Below are positions 41,459 to 50,400 of a DNA stretch of 64,000 nucleotides, piece after piece. The stretch's first letter is position 1. Every line of letters begins with the position of its first letter. The stretch covers positions 128,001 through 192,000 of the forward strand of contig CAVOKF010000005.1 in the NCBI GenBank assembly GCA_963696385.1. The letters are read 5' to 3'. The position numbers were made by a program. The DNA is from an uncultured delta proteobacterium. Lineage in GTDB: Bacteria > Myxococcota_A > Polyangia > Polyangiales > Polyangiaceae.

Positions 41459-44400
41459 TCACGGAGAGACTCCAGACGCGCGCGGAGGCTTCCATCGAAG
41501 ACGCGGTCACCGATCCGCGTGACTACGCCGCCGACGAGTGCCGAGTCGGTCTTTCGGTCGACGAGCACTCGCCGCCCCGTCAGGCGCTCGAGCTCCGCCT
41601 GAAGCCGCCCGTAATAAGCCTCGGACAAGGGCGTCGCCGTCGTTACCTCGGCTCGCACCAAGCCCTTTCGCGCGTCCGCGAGTTCGCTCAAGCTGCGCGC
41701 CAGGTGCGGTAGCGCGCGAACGCGCCGACGGTCGACTAAGAGAAGAAGCGCATTTCGTGTCGTTGGGGTAGCGCCAATCTGGTCGGCCAGCTCGCCCATC
41801 ACCGCGCTCTTATTGGGATGAGGGACGCGTGGGTTCTCGAGGGCGTTTCGTAGCTCGGCGCTAGTTGCCCAAGCGTCGGCGACGGTCGCAAAATCATCGA
41901 CGATCTTGTCGAGTTGACCGCTTTCGGTGCCGAGCTCGAGCAGCGCCTTGGCGTAACGACGGGCGACGATCGCTATGCTCATAAAGCGCTCTCTCTCGTT
42001 CCGAACGGATCCGCAGGTTGCGCAACGGCAGTGCCCTTCGCGCCGCCGAGTTCGCTCAAGTACGCCTCCGCCAATCGCTCTTGGTCCTCCTGCGTTATGC
42101 GTTGCGCCAAGAGCTCTCTAGCTGCCAGGACGGCCATTTCGACCGTATCGCGCAACAAATCCAGGCGGATTTGCTTCAACTCCTGCTGGACCAGAAACTC
42201 GGCGTCGCGGCGCATTCGGTCAGCTTTCGCCTCCGCGTCCTTGACGATCCGGTCGCGCTCGGCCTCACCGGTGCGCAGCAGTGCGTCGCGGGCCGCCCGG
42301 GCCTCTTCGTCGACCCTCTCGAGCTTGGCCTGATAGGTCTTTGCGCGTGCCTCGGCTTCCTCCTTCATACGTTGCGCTTCGTCGATGTCCTTGGCGATGC
42401 CGTCGCGGCGACTTCGAAGGGCCGCGGCAATTGGCCGCTTGCCGAGCAAGTAGTACCCTCCGACGAGGATGCCGAAGTTGACGAGCATCGCGATGAACGG
42501 TGGCGTATCCGACCCGAACTGCGTCCAGTTCATGGGTGCCGGGCCCGTGTCCTCGGCTTGCTTGAGGGTCTCCTTTGCAGGCTCGCGACGCGCGCTCTCG
42601 TCCGTTGTGGCCGCCGAGCCGCCTCGCGCCGGCCTTGCGTTCCGCGCATGATTCGATTGTGCCCAGGCCAAAAGCGACCACGCGGTGACGAGCCCCATGG
42701 CGACGAGGGCGAGCCGCCTCGCGATTCGTGCGCCCCTCCTCACGACCGCACCGGACGTCCGAGGATGCGGCCGACCAGGTCCTGGGCCATGGCCGTGGTC
42801 TCGGCCTTCAGGACTGCGCGCGCCCGCTGAGCCTCAGCGTGTGCCGTCCGCTTGCCCTCCTCGGAAACGCGCGCGATCGATTCTCGGAGAGCCGACAAGA
42901 TCTCTGCCTCCCGCCTGAGCCCGTCGGCGCGCGCCTTTTCGCGTTGCGCGCTCCCTTCGACGCGAGCTGCGGCCATGGCGGCTTGATACTCGCTAAGTGC
43001 GCTGACCGACTTCTCGTCGATGTGTCGGGCCTGAGCCTTCACTCCTTCGATAAGACGCTCCCGCTGTTCGAACAGCCGAAGCATCGGATCGAAGAGAAGC
43101 GGCTTGAGGACGAGCGTCAGCCCGACAAAAAGGAAGAGCTGGACGAGGAACGTCGCGTCGAAATCGACGTTGATGGCCTGCGGGGGTGCTGCAAGCACGA
43201 TGCCGTCGAAGGAGGCCGAAACCATGCGTCTCCGTTCGTTCAGTCAGGAGGGAAAAGTCGAGCGCGCCCAGTAGCACTGCGCGGTTCGAGTGTCCATTGC
43301 TGCCCGTGGTTCGATCCTGCTTCTCAGCGCCGCCGCTCAATGCGGGACTTCCCCGCCGCACTTGCCTTGGCGTAGGGCCTCTGCGGCGTGGTGCGGCTTC
43401 CGACGAGTACGGGCCCGTTGGCGTGCATTTCCGGGTGAACGCTCGCGAGACCCTCAGTGCGTGCGAACCCGGCGAGGTCTCCAGCGTTGCGATCCATCCA
43501 CACGCTGAAACGACGCCAAAACGCACGCCCCGCTTCTTGGCCGAGCGGGACCCCATCGACGTGAACCTTCAGGGAACTCATGACCTTCCGATCGGCGCAT
43601 CGGATCGTCCAGCAATGCAGCAAACAACCGCACGATAGATACTACAGAATCCCGAACTCCTTCAAGCGTCGATAGAATGTCCGGCGCGGCAGGTTGATGA
43701 GTTTCGCCGCTTGCACGCGGTTCCAATTGCTGGCGGTTAGGGCGCCAAGGATTCGCTCGCGCTCCGCAGCCTTGAACTCCTCCTTGCTCTTCGCGCCGGG
43801 AGGTGGCGAGGGTCGGGCTGGCGGATCATCTACCCGCAGATCGTTTCCTAGGCTTGGGTGCAGTTTGTCCGACGGGATCTCCAAGTCATCCGGCCGAATT
43901 TCTGTGCCCTCGGTCATGAGCCACGCGCTCAGAAGAATATGCTCGAGCTGTCGAACGTTACCCGGCCACGCATAACTGCAGAGCCTTCTCAGAGCCGCCC
44001 TCGATACGGTCTTGCGTTCACGGCGGTACCGCGTCGCGAAGCGCGACAGGAAAAAATCGATGAGTAGCGGAATGTCTTCCACGCGTTCGCGCAACGCGGG
44101 AACGTGCAGTTCGACGACATGAAGTCGGTAGAATAAGTCGGCCCGAAACGTGCCGTCCGAAACCATCCGGGTGAGGTCGCGGTGGGTGGCAGCAATGATT
44201 CGCGCGTCGACCGGCTCTTCGCGGGTTGCCCCGACGGGACGCACGCACTTCTCTTGCAGAACACGGAGCAAGCCCAATTGCATTTTTTGTGGCATCTCGC
44301 CGATTTCATCGAGCAAGAGGGTGCCTTGGTCGGCCTCTTGCAAGACGCCCCGGCGGTCCCGATCAGCACCGGTGAAGGCGCCTTTGACGGCACCGAAGAG

Positions 44401-47400: not shown

Positions 47401-50400
47401 CTCGTCGACGCTAGGCCATCGTGCCGCGGGAGACGCCTCGTTCGCCCGCGCTGCCACGCTCTCGAGTGCCGCACGAGTCTCCCTTGACAGATCGATCGCT
47501 CGTAGCTGGATCGCCTCGCTCAGCGTCATGCCGAGCGCATACACCTCTGCGCGAACCGTGATCGCCTCGCCGCGTAGAAGCTCGGGCGCTGCGTATTTTG
47601 GAGTAAGCCCAAGCGTCGGAGTGCCCCCTTCCCGCCAGGGTGCGGCCAGGCCCAAATCAACTAGTGTTCCGTGTCCGTCTTCACTGACGATGATGTTCGC
47701 CGGCTTCAGGTCCCCGTGCAGCAGCCCGGCGCGGTGCACCACCGTGAGCTGATCGCATGCGCTCGCAAGGGCACTGAGCCAGGCCGAGCCGTCTGCGCGC
47801 TGCAGGATTTCGTCAAGGCTTCGTCCTTCGACGAGCTCGCGTATCATGTAACGGCGCCCATCGTGGAGCGCTCCGAAGCCGACGACTCGTGGTACGCCGA
47901 GTCCCTCAAGTCCGCTCAGGGCAATGGCTTCTCGCACGAGCGCGCCAACTTCTCCTTCCCCTGCCCCATTCGAAAGCACTTTGAGGGCGAGTACCACCCC
48001 GCTCACCCGATCGCGCACGGACCAGACTTCGCCGGCGCCGCCCGCCCCGAGGCGCTGGATAGGCTCGTAGCGCGGCGGTAGACCGAGCATTCCGACTCAG
48101 AGTGTATCGCGGAACGGCGTGCGTAGCTGCGTTTCGTGGTTCGTTGCGTGCCCAGCACTCGCCGCGTCCTCCTTGCGCTCCAGGCCGTAGTCCGCGCTGA
48201 GCCCGAACCAGAAGCCGGTCAGCGAGAAGCCGACGCTGAGCCGTGTCTCCAGTTGCTTGATGGGCTTATACCTAAGACTTAATTGCGGAATGGCGATATG
48301 CGGAAATATCACGGGCACAGGTCCTCCGTTCAACCAGTTGGCCTCGTTGTAGCCGCCGACCTTGTGGGGATTGGGGTCGGTGTGCTGGCTCGGATCGCAG
48401 CCGTTCGTGAGTCCGACGGCGTCGGCCGGAGCGGCGGTCGTCTGGCACTCGGTGTAATGGTTGCCGTTGCTGCCAACAAGCGGTCCGTTCGAGGTTTGGC
48501 TCACCCAGTTGTTGCCGAGACTACCGAAGACGAAGCCAATGCCGACGCCGAACCCGTACTCGAAGTCAAAATGCCTCGCGATAGGCGTGCTCCATAGCTC
48601 ATCAATGCCGAGGTAGATCGCTTTCAGACTACTATTGACGACGCTATAATTGTTCGCTACGTCCGCCGATCCTTTTTGAAAAAAAAGGATGTTTCCGGTA
48701 TTGTAGTCTGCATATTGAATCCAAGGAATCATCGATTGTCCGGCGCTTCGAATATCGAATTCTGCGCCAATGGTATTGGAGTAAATCGTTTCTCCATCGT
48801 TGACAAAAATGTTTTCGATAAATTTTGGAATGATCGTACCGCGATAACGGACGCCGGTGAACAGATAGCGCTTGTTCGGGTATTCCGTCGTATCGGTGAT
48901 AGCGTCGCTCTCGGGTGGCGCGATGCTGGGCAGCGATGTGGCGACGGGCGTCCCCAGCAAGGCGGGTGGAGGCCCCGCGGGCGCGACCGGGCCTGGATTT
49001 GGAGCCGAGCGCGACGAGCCCTCGCGAAGGGCCGGGGCCCCGGATTCGCCCTGCGATGGCGATTCGGAGTCTGAGGGGGCCGGCGTCACTTTTTTCTTGT
49101 GTTTCGGCGGTGCGATCTGGCTTTGGTCAGGATTTTCGGCTTGTGCGAAAGCGGGCGGTCCGATGACACATGCGGCTAGGGCCAACACGAGCGTAGCCCC
49201 GGCCGTCATCCAACGACGGATGCGACCGCGTTCGCGCAGAGCCCGATGGGACCGACGTGCGGAAGGGTAGGCAAGGCTCACCATGGCAGGACCTCCGGTC
49301 GAAAGCACGCGAGAGCGAGCGAGACGCGTGGGATGCTACACTAGAGACCGGTGCGCGCGTCCTCACAAGTGCGCGGACAATCTACTGATCCTGCGCATCA
49401 GCGGGACGTCGAACAGGTGCGCGAAAGCGAAAGCTTCCAAAAGGAAATCATCCTGGCGGCTTCGGCGCCTTACGACGGGCGCGACGACGCGTTCACTCTG
49501 CAGCGTCGCGCTTGCGCGCTGAAAGCCGCTGCTCGCCCCTTATCTGCGCGAGTTCGTCCTCGAATTTGCGCAGCGTTCGACGCATGTCATTCACGTCGGC
49601 TCTTGTCGCTAGGGCCATCGCTTTCGCGACGTTCTCGAGCTGCTCCTGCGCGAAGCTTTGTGCCTTGCCCGGCAGGCTCATGGCCGCCATGACCGCTCGC
49701 ATGATCCGCTCGTCCTGAAGCACCTTGGCGACGCGCGGGTCGCTCATGAGCCTTAGACCCTGCCTTAATACGGTTCGTTTGAGAGAGCTCATCGGTCCGC
49801 GTCTTTAGGCCGCTCCCGCATCTTGCGCAACGCGATCAATCCTTGGCATCGCCCCGAGCGAAGATCGATGCGACGTAGTTGAGTACGTCGGTCGCGCTGA
49901 CCTCGTTGTACCCGAAGTTCTTTATGAGCCGCGACTTGATGATGTCGATTTTCTCCTGCGTGTCCTTGTCGACGACCGCGCTGACCAGCGTCTTCAGCTT
50001 GATGCTGTCCTTCTGGTCTTCGAACAGTTTGAGCTCGAGTGCGCGACGCAGACGATCGTTCGTGTTCCATTCGAACCGCTTTCCGTCTACGGCGAGCGCG
50101 CCGATGAAATTCATGATCTCGCGGCGGAAGTCGTCTTTCCTGTTCTCAGGGATGTCGATCTTCTCTTCGATTGAGCGCATCAATCGTTCGTCGGGATCCT
50201 CATCTTGCCCCGTGTACCGGTTTTTCACTCGCTCCTTGAGCGTGAAGGCCTTGATGTTGTCGATATAGTTCGCTGCAAGTTTGCTGATTGCATCTTCATC
50301 GGCACTAATGGCTCGCTGCACTTCATTTTTCACGATCTCCTCGTATTCGCGCTTGACCATACCGATGACCTCTCCGAAGCGCTTGCGCATGTCGTCGCTC

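Follow-up and report, generated by a model that had tools for sequence, protein, structure and literature searches.

Introduction

Several described systems share part of their build with the regulator analysed here. The FHA-domain enhancer-binding proteins (EBPs) of Myxococcus xanthus couple Ser/Thr phosphorylation to sigma-54 transcription; there the kinase is a protein of its own, phosphothreonine being recognised by the FHA domain of the EBP, and such EBPs are reportedly linked to Ser/Thr kinases in that species, a connection credited to Jelsbak et al. in 2005. In Streptomyces, three separate genes, afsK, afsR and afsS, encode a Ser/Thr kinase, a STAND-TPR activator with a SARP DNA-binding domain that works with sigma-70 promoters, and a small protein; afsS lies directly downstream of afsR and is separately activated. 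PMC1262709 sets out the domain build of AfsR and also that of PknK of Mycobacterium tuberculosis, in which a MalT-like NTPase and TPRs come after an N-terminal Hanks kinase. The PknK chain itself lacks both a DNA-binding and a sigma-54 module, and the protein acts, according to PMC6213207, on a separate regulator, VirS. In MalT the switch is driven by NOD-arm contact (PMC4381067). NifA, NorR, FhlA and PexR each combine a GAF domain, a long linker, a Sigma54_activat domain, a lid and a Fis-type HTH, and PMC12754779 gives experimental evidence that the GAF domain of PexR from M. xanthus autoinhibits the AAA+ domain of this EBP.

We analysed a window of 64,000 nucleotides within a 1,529,289-base contig (C5) of an uncultured Polyangiaceae bacterium. 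A regulator encoded there matches the NifA, NorR, FhlA and PexR build in its C-terminal 540 residues, and differs in 950 extra N-terminal residues holding a kinase, a STAND NTPase and TPRs, the PknK order. Unlike in PknK, the output is fused to this part and the P-loop is degenerate; unlike in the M. xanthus FHA-EBPs, the kinase is inside the EBP chain. The locus also resembles AfsK/AfsR/AfsS in having a small gene downstream, yet kinase and activator form one chain with a sigma-54 output, and the small gene appears co-transcribed.

Results and Discussion

Domain layout of the regulator

The regulator gene (P0001, 43642..48090, minus strand) is a single reading frame with an ATG start and no internal stops, encodes 1482 aa, and has full-length homologues. 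Pfam matches are, in order, Pkinase at residues 8-195 (E 2.8e-24, model positions 1-192 of 263), nSTAND_NTPase5 at 251-373 (5.5e-10; 39.7 bits, cut-off 34), TPR_12 at 568-641 with a weak TPR_MalT match at 535-844, GAF_2 at 958-1099 (3.7e-14), Sigma54_activat at 1162-1328 (1.9e-68, model positions 1-167 of 168), AAA_lid_14 at 1334-1404 (4.8e-22) and HTH_8 at 1442-1479 (3e-10). This rerun returned every row quoted in the survey's finding, which had described one chain bearing kinase, nSTAND, GAF, Sigma54_activat, lid and HTH domains. The absence of a receiver domain, also claimed there, was confirmed, with no REC among the Pfam matches.

The kinase and the reduced STAND part

Residues 1-245 (47356..48090, minus strand) form a Hanks-type Ser/Thr kinase whose nearest solved relatives are StkP, PknA and PknB (E about 1e-17). 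It is non-RD (H125-G126-D127) and has a shortened C-lobe, about 30 columns shorter in the regulator family than in the sister family described below. The survey had allowed that this might be a pseudokinase, and we ran the catalytic-residue check: the G-loop, K37, E54, H125-G126-D127, N132, D145 and E170 are retained in 43-44 of 44 homologues. In sets of 27 and 45 sequences, the G-loop, K37, E54, HGD, K129, N132, DLG, APE and R224 show little or no variation; the conservation sets reach down to 37% full-length identity. The catalytic residues are all present, and the kinase does not look dead.

Next comes a reduced STAND NTPase (residues 251-440; 46771..47340, minus strand), with Walker A GSGRT (R287), Walker B VDD (D340, D341) and a helical part bearing a GRRPG motif, followed by a TPR or helical-repeat array (residues about 470-940; 45271..46683, minus strand) placed by TPR_12, weak TPR_MalT and PDB TPR matches, and the sister-family alignment. 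The STAND domain is homologous to the AAA_16 P-loop domain (GxGKS) of the ~1700-aa sister family. Position 287 is Arg in 32 of 45 sequences, that of the present regulator included, Lys in 10 and another residue in 3, while D340 is retained in 43 of 45. About 170 alignment columns that in the sister family separate the helical sub-domain from the TPR array are missing. The STAND part of the regulator family is reduced and its P-loop degenerate, and a nucleotide-dependent switch is doubtful because of the Lys-to-Arg change and the lost columns. Perhaps Arg in Walker A still binds nucleotide, some relatives keeping the Lys, in which case a switch could operate after all.

The GAF domain and the sigma-54 activator module

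The GAF domain (residues 958-1099; 44794..45219, minus strand) has an invariant D1033, and at least 90% of alignment rows share H1043, C1052 and E1071; in a comparison of spacing alone, these residues are placed at distances similar to that of the PexR metal ligands H102, H120, C122 and D140. The NifA model TIGR01817 matches residues 944-1481 at 3.6e-107. The regulator is not NifA, since the 359 bits of this match fall below the equivalog cut-off of 529. The ~60-residue linker that follows (1100-1161; 44608..44793, minus strand) has conserved Leu and Arg columns and is probably a long helix. Beyond it on the same strand lie the sigma-54 interaction AAA+ domain (1162-1328; 44107..44607; Walker A GESGTGKE, GAFTGA, Walker B DE), the AAA+ lid (1334-1404; 43879..44091) and the Fis-type HTH with its invariant columns (1442-1479; 43654..43767). 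The Walker A Lys and the Walker B DE are kept in 44 of 44 sequences and the GAFTGA positions in 41-44 of 44. Judged by its motifs (Walker A and B, GAFTGA, HTH), all of them intact, the activator module is complete, as the survey had concluded from the full-model Sigma54_activat match. The genome has one copy of rpoN.

The survey went on to propose that the kinase-STAND part drives the sigma-54 ATPase directly. Because the AAA+ domain is immediately preceded by the GAF domain and the probable ~60-residue helix, an arrangement shared with NifA, NorR and PexR, we consider the GAF domain, rather than the kinase, more likely by analogy to be the proximal gate.

Distribution and sister family

From 8000 scored candidates, the homologue search yielded 2569 proteins at E<=1e-20, of which the best 120 reproduced the survey's profile: identity 62-95% (the query's own row aside), length 1386-1560 aa, query coverage 91-100%, and PF00069 and PF00158 in every row of the table, which was read by eye. 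Source names include 'sigma 54-interacting transcriptional regulator [Polyangiaceae bacterium]' and 'PknK', a label that JGI annotation gives to many of the homologues; some relatives of ~1100-1190 aa (P0195, P0258, P0242) have kinase-STAND-TPR without the EBP part. Conservation across Polyangiaceae stood up, the gene being single-copy, with a full-length N-terminal half, in 27 of the 29 family genomes sampled. Cultured members that have it include Labilithrix luteola, Sorangium cellulosum So ce26 and Polyangium species, and among the genomes sampled the regulator family is restricted to one family-level clade. A few metatranscriptome contigs match the regulator and its upstream gene, a weak sign of RNA in which DNA carry-over is possible.

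The kinase-STAND-TPR-GAF-sigma-54 build is not a new class, contrary to the survey's suggestion; it is common and already named in public databases, and a larger sister family exists (~1650-1715 aa, Pkinase-AAA_16-TPR-GAF-Sigma54_activat-HTH_8, named members Myxococcota). The two families have the same domain order and are homologous over their whole length (hhalign probability 100, 1462 columns, 36% identity), and the sister kinase likewise has HGD. In the sister family the P-loop is still a canonical GxGKS and DFG is kept, where the regulator has GSGRT and DLG, and that family has NTPase-domain inserts besides its longer kinase C-lobe and the extra stretch before the TPR array. The regulator family differs further in having flanking genes of its own.

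Neighbouring genes

Six bases upstream of the regulator start is a gene for a 403-aa secreted or envelope protein (48097..49308, minus strand), which matches no Pfam or NCBIfam family. Its sequence has a signal-peptide-like N-terminus, a Pro-rich linker and a beta-rich C-terminal domain; its atlas clusters are Myxococcota 'secreted protein', and 31% of one of these clusters carries an OMP_b-brl lead. In 47 of 69 loci such a gene immediately precedes the regulator on the same strand, and 3 further loci are borderline. Downstream, between the regulator and atpF, is an unannotated 85-aa gene (43324..43581, minus strand) encoding a conserved ~62-aa domain and a basic Pro/Gly/Lys/Arg tail. It is single-copy in the genome and has 532 database relatives; the names given among the 120 listed are all 'hypothetical'. 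A counterpart occurs on the same strand within 1.5 kb downstream of the regulator in 31 of 67 loci, and it looks co-transcribed with the regulator because it overlaps the regulator stop codon (ATGA) in four loci (L046, L053, L055, L077). These flanking genes are missing from about one-third to one-half of loci, partly because tblastn overlooks them when the query is short or diverged. Both the secreted protein and the basic-tailed small protein are probable partners of the regulator in the same pathway.

Farther out, genes for the ATP synthase b, b', delta, alpha and gamma subunits lie downstream, and PrkA beyond the 403-aa protein upstream, as the survey had it, except that it missed the 85-aa gene. 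The survey also gave weight to the place beside prkA and the atp operon. However, prkA precedes the regulator in 28 of 47 loci, separated from it by unrelated genes that vary between loci; atpA is near the regulator in 8 of 36; and a conserved sigma-70-like promoter of its own serves the atp operon. The linkage to prkA is loose and that to atp rare, and the position carries little meaning.

Candidate sigma-54 promoters

In 61 of 70 loci scanned, the 3.5 kb preceding the regulator contain no canonical -24/-12 element (at most 2 mismatches); matches in the other 9 are scattered and unconserved in position. Before neighbouring genes, such elements were found in 0 of 51 cases for the 403-aa protein gene, 0 of 31 for prkA, 0 of 14 for atpF and 1 of 36 for the small gene. 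Given this sparseness, no target can be assigned to the regulator. The only conserved sigma-54-like promoter nearby is an element, GGGCTCGACACTTGCA (52130..52145, plus strand), located 55 nt ahead of the start (probably 52200) of a DUF6600 lipoprotein-like gene (52128..53627, plus strand; PF20245, 1.3e-27), whose product has a lipoprotein-like N-terminus when read from that ATG. A like element precedes this gene in 5 of 8 loci (background 5.7e-4 per nt per strand, binomial about 2.5e-5), making it a candidate sigma-54 target in the neighbourhood. The promoter could serve the neighbouring FHA-GAF-sigma-54 activator (54200..56140, minus strand; 646 aa; Pfam FHA, GAF_2, Sigma54_activat, HTH_8) or any of >40 other EBP-like matches in the genome. 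That activator lies about 6 kb from the regulator and is 41% identical to its residues 1010-1481, and 7 of the 36 loci with full flanks include an orthologue of it; possibly it reads phosphothreonine marks made by the regulator's kinase.

Proposed mechanism and alternatives

We take the regulator for a cytoplasmic, GAF-gated sigma-54 EBP that also carries a kinase, a trimmed STAND part and TPRs N-terminally, and regard this whole explanation, scaffold and partners included, as moderately probable. Its C-terminal half runs from GAF through long linker, AAA+ and lid to Fis-type HTH, like that of NifA, NorR and PexR; its N-terminal half places an intact non-RD Hanks kinase, the trimmed NTPase and a ~470-residue TPR array in the same chain. 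The TPR/STAND part would now serve mainly as a binding and self-association scaffold rather than as an ATP-hydrolysing timer. By gathering chains it would allow the kinase to trans-phosphorylate and would favour assembly of the activator ring, on which the GAF domain would act as proximal brake; the output would be ATP-driven opening of sigma-54 promoters at HTH-bound sites.

The survey's own reading was that the kinase-STAND part is a working PknK/MalT-like nucleotide switch, with ATP-dependent oligomerisation and autophosphorylation feeding the sigma-54 ATPase as its main input in place of a receiver domain. The domain order, the active-looking kinase, the missing REC domain, the above-cut-off STAND match, the kept Walker B DD (D340 in 43/45) and the Walker A Lys of 10/45 relatives agree with it. 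Several points speak against it: that Lys is Arg in 32/45 and another residue in 3/45, ~170 sister-family columns are gone after the helical sub-domain, MalT is switched by NOD-arm contact, and a GAF domain intervenes before the AAA+ domain. We retain the domain order and the intact kinase from this reading, and consider such a switch unlikely.

The kinase might instead mainly phosphorylate separate proteins, chiefly a partner that the FHA domain of the FHA-GAF-EBP 6 kb away would read, so that the two activators form a phosphorylation-coupled pair and the regulator's own EBP half is under GAF alone. The presence of that gene, its resemblance to the regulator's C-terminal half and the reported ties of M. 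xanthus FHA-EBPs to Ser/Thr kinases speak for such a division of outputs; its linkage, limited to those 7/36 loci, and the ~50 other kinase matches in the genome that could serve the FHA domain make it improbable. Finally, the reduced STAND part and kinase C-lobe and the degenerate P-loop would suit an N-terminal 950 residues left over from evolution, with a structural role only, in a plain GAF-regulated EBP. The kinase catalytic residues retained in nearly all homologues, even the most distant, and the full-length N-terminal half kept throughout most of the family are hard to square with loss of function, and we think this very unlikely.

The survey's overall interpretation is partly supported. 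The regulator family forms a reduced branch, single-copy and spread across Polyangiaceae, within a larger kinase-STAND-TPR-GAF-EBP superfamily, and what is new is its setting: the 85-aa gene downstream, the secreted-protein gene upstream, and the sigma-54-like promoter before the nearby DUF6600 lipoprotein gene.

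Domain order and catalytic residues of the regulator

The regulator is a single open frame of 1482 codons with an ATG start, at 43642-48090 on the minus strand. From N- to C-terminus, Pfam places Pkinase at residues 8-195, nSTAND_NTPase5 (PF25199) at 251-373 (39.7 bits, above the cut-off of 34), TPR_12 at 568-641 with a weak MalT-like TPR match at 535-844, GAF_2 at 958-1099, Sigma54_activat (PF00158) at 1162-1328 (1.9e-68, model positions 1-167 of 168), AAA_lid_14 at 1334-1404 and a Fis-type HTH_8 at 1442-1479 (3e-10). The survey's finding had described this frame and these Pfam domains, correctly in each detail checked. 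Conservation was read from two homologue alignments, A1 with 27 sequences that are 62-95% identical, and A4 (the same set as A2) with 45 sequences reaching down to 37% full-length identity.

Two more familiar identities were considered and set aside. As a NifA the protein falls short, since the NCBIfam equivalog TIGR01817, aligned over residues 944-1481, scores 359.3 bits, below its cut-off of 528.85. As an anti-phage STAND defence system (Avs-like or other) it draws only generic PADLOC matches: among the 25 of 35 families listed, the matches are to the kinase (PD-T4-6, mad6) or to the AAA+ domain of sigma-54 enhancer-binding proteins (EBPs; RtcR), and none lies over residues 250-950.

The survey's finding had also raised the worry that the kinase may be a pseudokinase, against which the catalytic residues argue. 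The core motifs of Hanks-type kinases are the Gly-rich loop, the VAIK Lys, the alpha-C Glu, the catalytic Asp and Asn, the DFG Asp and the APE Glu; here the GAGGAG loop, K37, E54, D127, N132, D145 and E170 are each present in 43-44 of 44 homologues. The wider set of residues that are invariant or found in 43-44 of the 44 takes in H125-G126-D127, K129, D145-L-G147, E170 of the APE motif and R224. The kinase is of the non-RD kind, with Gly replacing the Arg of HRD (giving HGD) in all 44 homologues. An Arg preceding the catalytic Asp, as in RD kinases, is a sign of control via the activation loop; the non-RD character is compatible with membership of the Hanks-type superfamily. The C-lobe appears to be short, which would explain why Pfam follows its model only to position 192 of 263: in a profile-profile alignment, a longer sister family has about 30 more columns in this lobe. 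The subdomain-XI Arg, R224, is invariant in both A1 and A4. The nearest solved relatives of the domain are StkP, PknA and PknB (E about 1e-17). To judge from its catalytic residues, this is an intact, non-RD kinase; its C-lobe is probably trimmed.

The sigma-54 activator half is intact, and the GAF domain lies directly before it. Walker A (GESGTGKE) and Walker B (LLLDEIGE) are present, with the K and the DE in 44/44 homologues, and the sigma-54-contacting loop G1237-A1242 reads GAFTGA, each position being kept in 41-44 of the 44. The genome has one rpoN (PF04552 match of 1.8e-63 at C8:141849-142328, on another contig, inside a 564-aa open frame). Within the GAF domain D1033 is invariant, and H1043, C1052 and E1071 occur in at least 90% of A4 rows; in a comparison by spacing these four residues resemble the ligands of PexR. 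PexR is a myxobacterial EBP whose metal-binding GAF was shown to autoinhibit the protein until H2O2 releases the metal (PMC12754779). A metal site in the GAF domain of the regulator is only a lead.

A reduced STAND module and a longer sister family

The STAND nucleotide-binding part is the weak module of the regulator, with a decayed P-loop. Its Walker A reads GSGRT against the expected GxxGxGK[ST]; at position 287, that of the Walker-A Lys, 32 of 45 sequences have Arg, 10 have Lys and 3 have another residue. The Walker B reads VIVIVDD, with D340 in 43/45 and D341 in 37/45.

A search with residues 1-950 against 1.84 billion cluster representatives gave 242 proteins at E<=1e-30, which form three groups: (i) full-length orthologues of 1420-1530 aa; (ii) proteins of 1640-1715 aa, which by Pfam are Pkinase-AAA_16-TPR-GAF-Sigma54_activat-HTH_8; and (iii) PknK-like proteins of 1100-1190 aa, on which Pfam finds no GAF-EBP half. 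Profile-profile alignment of the short family, i.e. the regulator and its orthologues (A4), with the long family (A5, 18 members) gave a probability of 100 over 1462 columns at 36% identity. The long family differs from the short one in its canonical GxGKS P-loop and its DFG motif, in inserts in the NTPase domain, and in about 170 additional columns that separate the helical sub-domain from the TPR array, where the short family shows gaps. The helical sub-domain of the short family bears a GxP-like GRRPG motif. From their position, the roughly 170 missing columns would correspond to the winged-helix/arm of a STAND protein; in MalT, the winged-helix/arm parts hold the closed state (PMC4381067). 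The P-loop and DFG of the long family, its extra C-lobe columns, its NTPase inserts and these 170 columns place the window protein in a reduced branch of a wider superfamily that is catalogued but unstudied.

Distribution and paralogues

When 401 genomes across the phylum were sampled with query residues 240-950 at a cut-off of E<=1e-20, 36 matched, the window genome included, a tally that is a floor because of a stricter first look in the search. In the family to which the window belongs, 27 of the 29 other genomes gave matches, with one gene in each (in one case split over two contigs) and complete frames of 1428-1617 aa. Eight genomes from other families of the same order gave weaker matches only, in frames of 1185-1847 aa, and elsewhere in the phylum there was no match among the 401 sampled genomes. 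A second scan, taking one genome per species, yielded 79 loci, with the N-terminal and EBP halves both on one strand in 64; in the other 15 one end of the regulator was missing by the criteria used. Carriers include Labilithrix luteola DSM 27648 (53% identity), Sorangium cellulosum So ce26 and Sorangium sp. So ce131 (45-46%), Polyangium fumosum, P. jinanense and many Polyangiaceae MAGs.

The window genome holds a single paralogue, 36% identical, at C7:39599-43573 (-). Its frame ends just past sensor II, and a Fis-type HTH follows immediately downstream in another frame, which could be due to a frameshift, a pseudogene or an assembly error. The HTH of the Labilithrix luteola orthologue (14227-14541 of its locus) is likewise out of frame, the shift falling within a Pro/Ala-rich linker; either a sequencing error or a real frameshift would account for this. 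Also on C7, at 1387854-1389531 (+), a 509-aa EBP gene runs directly ahead of a kinase match that lies in an open frame of 1139 aa; the two together may correspond to the fused build in split form.

Conserved flanking genes

A gene for a 403-aa, putatively secreted protein (48097-49308, minus strand) ends 6 bases before the start of the regulator, and in 47 of 69 loci it is the immediate upstream neighbour on the same strand, with three further borderline cases. The N-terminus of its product resembles a signal peptide and is joined by a Pro-rich linker to a beta-rich domain that matched no known family. The ORFs found upstream in loci without this gene were rejected as a second family, since the one translated has a wrong-frame-like make-up rich in Arg, Ala and Gly; four such ORFs matched no Pfam family.

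Downstream, between the regulator and atpF, lies a small gene of 85 aa (43324-43581, minus strand) that was absent from the gene list of the survey. It is single-copy in the window genome, and was found downstream on the same strand within 1.5 kb in 31/67 loci; in three Polyangium isolates and one Polyangium MAG (L046, L053, L055 and L077) its ATG overlaps the stop codon of the regulator as ATGA. The small-protein family (alignment A3) combines a conserved domain of about 62 residues with a tail of variable sequence in which Lys, Arg, Pro and Gly abound; repeats such as KPAPRAGG or PPNKPQ occur in the tails of relatives. There are 532 database proteins in this family; among the 120 listed, all names given are 'hypothetical' and no Pfam domain is recorded, and the Protein Atlas gave no usable match for the small protein.

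A gene for a Bcp-type peroxiredoxin lipoprotein follows the regulator downstream in 13 loci of closer relatives, and in most of these it separates the regulator from the small gene (14583-15200 in the Labilithrix luteola locus L015, and in L005, L009, L010, L013, L014, L016, L018, L020, L022, L028, L031 and L064); it is not at this place in the window or in loci L001, L019 and L027. Its presence is compatible with a redox input to the regulator and proves nothing. In the locus of Sorangium cellulosum So ce26 (L023), the regulator and the small gene are separated by an inserted ORF on the opposite strand (14616-15560, minus strand), which by its sequence looks like a Uma2-family endonuclease gene.

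A second activator gene, encoding FHA-GAF-Sigma54_activat-HTH_8 (FHA-EBP; 54200-56140, minus strand), lies 6 kb upstream of the regulator, and an orthologue occurs within 7 of 36 loci. An HPPK gene (53729-54196) follows it, and a gene for a 582-aa HEAT-like protein (56491-58239) precedes it. Several relatives also have the FHA-EBP and HEAT-like genes as a pair close to the regulator, at times located on its other side and encoded on the opposite strand.

Candidate target promoters and transcription

Sigma-54 promoters were sought as canonical -24/-12 elements with at most two mismatches and with GG and GC fixed. The survey's finding had drawn attention to the place of the regulator beside prkA and the ATP synthase operon; this adjacency is present in the window and has little meaning across loci. 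Upstream and on the same strand, prkA occurs in 28 of the 47 loci with enough flank, at variable spacers that contain unrelated genes, e.g. for a reverse transcriptase or alpha/beta hydrolases; these spacer genes, together with a count of 0/31 loci with a -24/-12 element before prkA, argue against prkA as operon partner or target. The atp operon fares no better as a target, since atpA is near the regulator in only 8/36 loci, atpF is preceded by a sigma-70-like element and none of 14 loci has a sigma-54 element before it. The sequence TGGACA-N17-TACTGG before the atp operon (about 43250-43330, minus strand), kept in the window and in loci L001, L019 and L031, looks like a sigma-70-type promoter.

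Nor do the nearest genes offer a target. Autoregulation from a sigma-54 promoter was rejected because 61 of 70 loci have no element in the 3.5 kb upstream of the regulator and the matches in the rest are scattered, and a sigma-54 promoter before the small gene because only 1/36 loci has a match. No element was found before the secreted-protein gene (0/51 loci) or the FHA-EBP gene (0/7). The whole window has 71 sigma-54 matches vs 57 +/- 8.5 in shuffles, which is chance level, as was the outcome of a promoter and terminator scan of 43000-50000.

The sole conserved candidate nearby is the sigma-54-like element GGGCTCGACACTTGCA at 52130-52145 (+), 4 kb from the regulator and 55 nt ahead of where a DUF6600 lipoprotein-like gene probably starts. 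The true start of this gene is probably at 52200, downstream of its called ATG at 52128 (end at 53627, plus strand). A like element (GGC..G-N4-CTTGCR) stands 25-60 nt before the gene in five of the eight loci having it, and the DNA around it differs between those loci. Against a genome-wide background of 5.7e-4 per nt per strand the binomial probability is about 2.5e-5, with the true significance weaker because the window and L001 are close kin. The genome has more than 40 EBP-like matches, and this putative promoter is not assignable to this activator.

Contigs of two metatranscriptome runs match the regulator at 44067-44255 with 100% identity; others, from a relative at about 95% identity, match it at 45147-45551 and 45922-46072, and the secreted-protein gene is matched at 48315-48508 and 49108-49247. 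Because DNA carry-over is possible, these contigs give no more than a hint of transcription of the two genes; they carry no strand, end or level information, and uncovered parts are uninformative.

Possible mechanism and significance

The GAF domain would act as a proximal brake on the activator, by analogy with PexR, in which the brake has been demonstrated whereas here we infer it. The TPR/STAND region might serve as a scaffold for binding and self-association that brings kinase domains together, and phosphorylation of the chain or of a partner, e.g. a protein read by the FHA-EBP, could then tune ring assembly. A joint reading, to which we give little credence, is that the secreted-protein gene, the regulator and the small gene would form a dedicated Polyangiaceae envelope-to-transcription module. 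The small protein would partner the regulator stoichiometrically, as an anti-activator or as a DNA-architectural helper acting through its Lys/Arg/Pro tail. The FHA domain of the FHA-EBP would read a site marked by the in-chain kinase, so that the two activators, coupled by Ser/Thr phosphorylation, would jointly drive sigma-54 promoters such as that of the DUF6600 gene.

The architecture itself is not a discovery, being common in databases and named in public annotation, and Sorangium kinase censuses are said to list kinases with sigma-54 activator domains. No description or test of the kinase-EBP fusion was found in the literature searched, which did not extend to the main kinome and EBP censuses, and the term 'Sigma54' does not occur in the supplements of PMC2877116. 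Specific to this analysis are, at the level of predicted features, the Arg P-loop with the reduced STAND part and the non-RD kinase with its trimmed C-lobe, and further the presence of the regulator as a single copy across the family, the two conserved genes that flank it and, nearby, the candidate sigma-54-like promoter.

The Polyangiaceae, with Sorangium, Polyangium and their relatives, have genomes that are among the largest of any bacteria, are rich sources of natural products, and rely heavily on Ser/Thr kinases and sigma-54 activators. The regulator is a nearly universal single-copy gene of this family that has a Ser/Thr kinase and a sigma-54 activator in one chain. With both signalling systems in one chain, it offers a clean place to test how eukaryote-like phosphorylation feeds sigma-54 transcription, and such a test is feasible since there are cultured carriers (Sorangium cellulosum, Polyangium fumosum and Labilithrix luteola). 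Concrete hypotheses come from the degenerate STAND P-loop and from the pair of conserved flanking genes.
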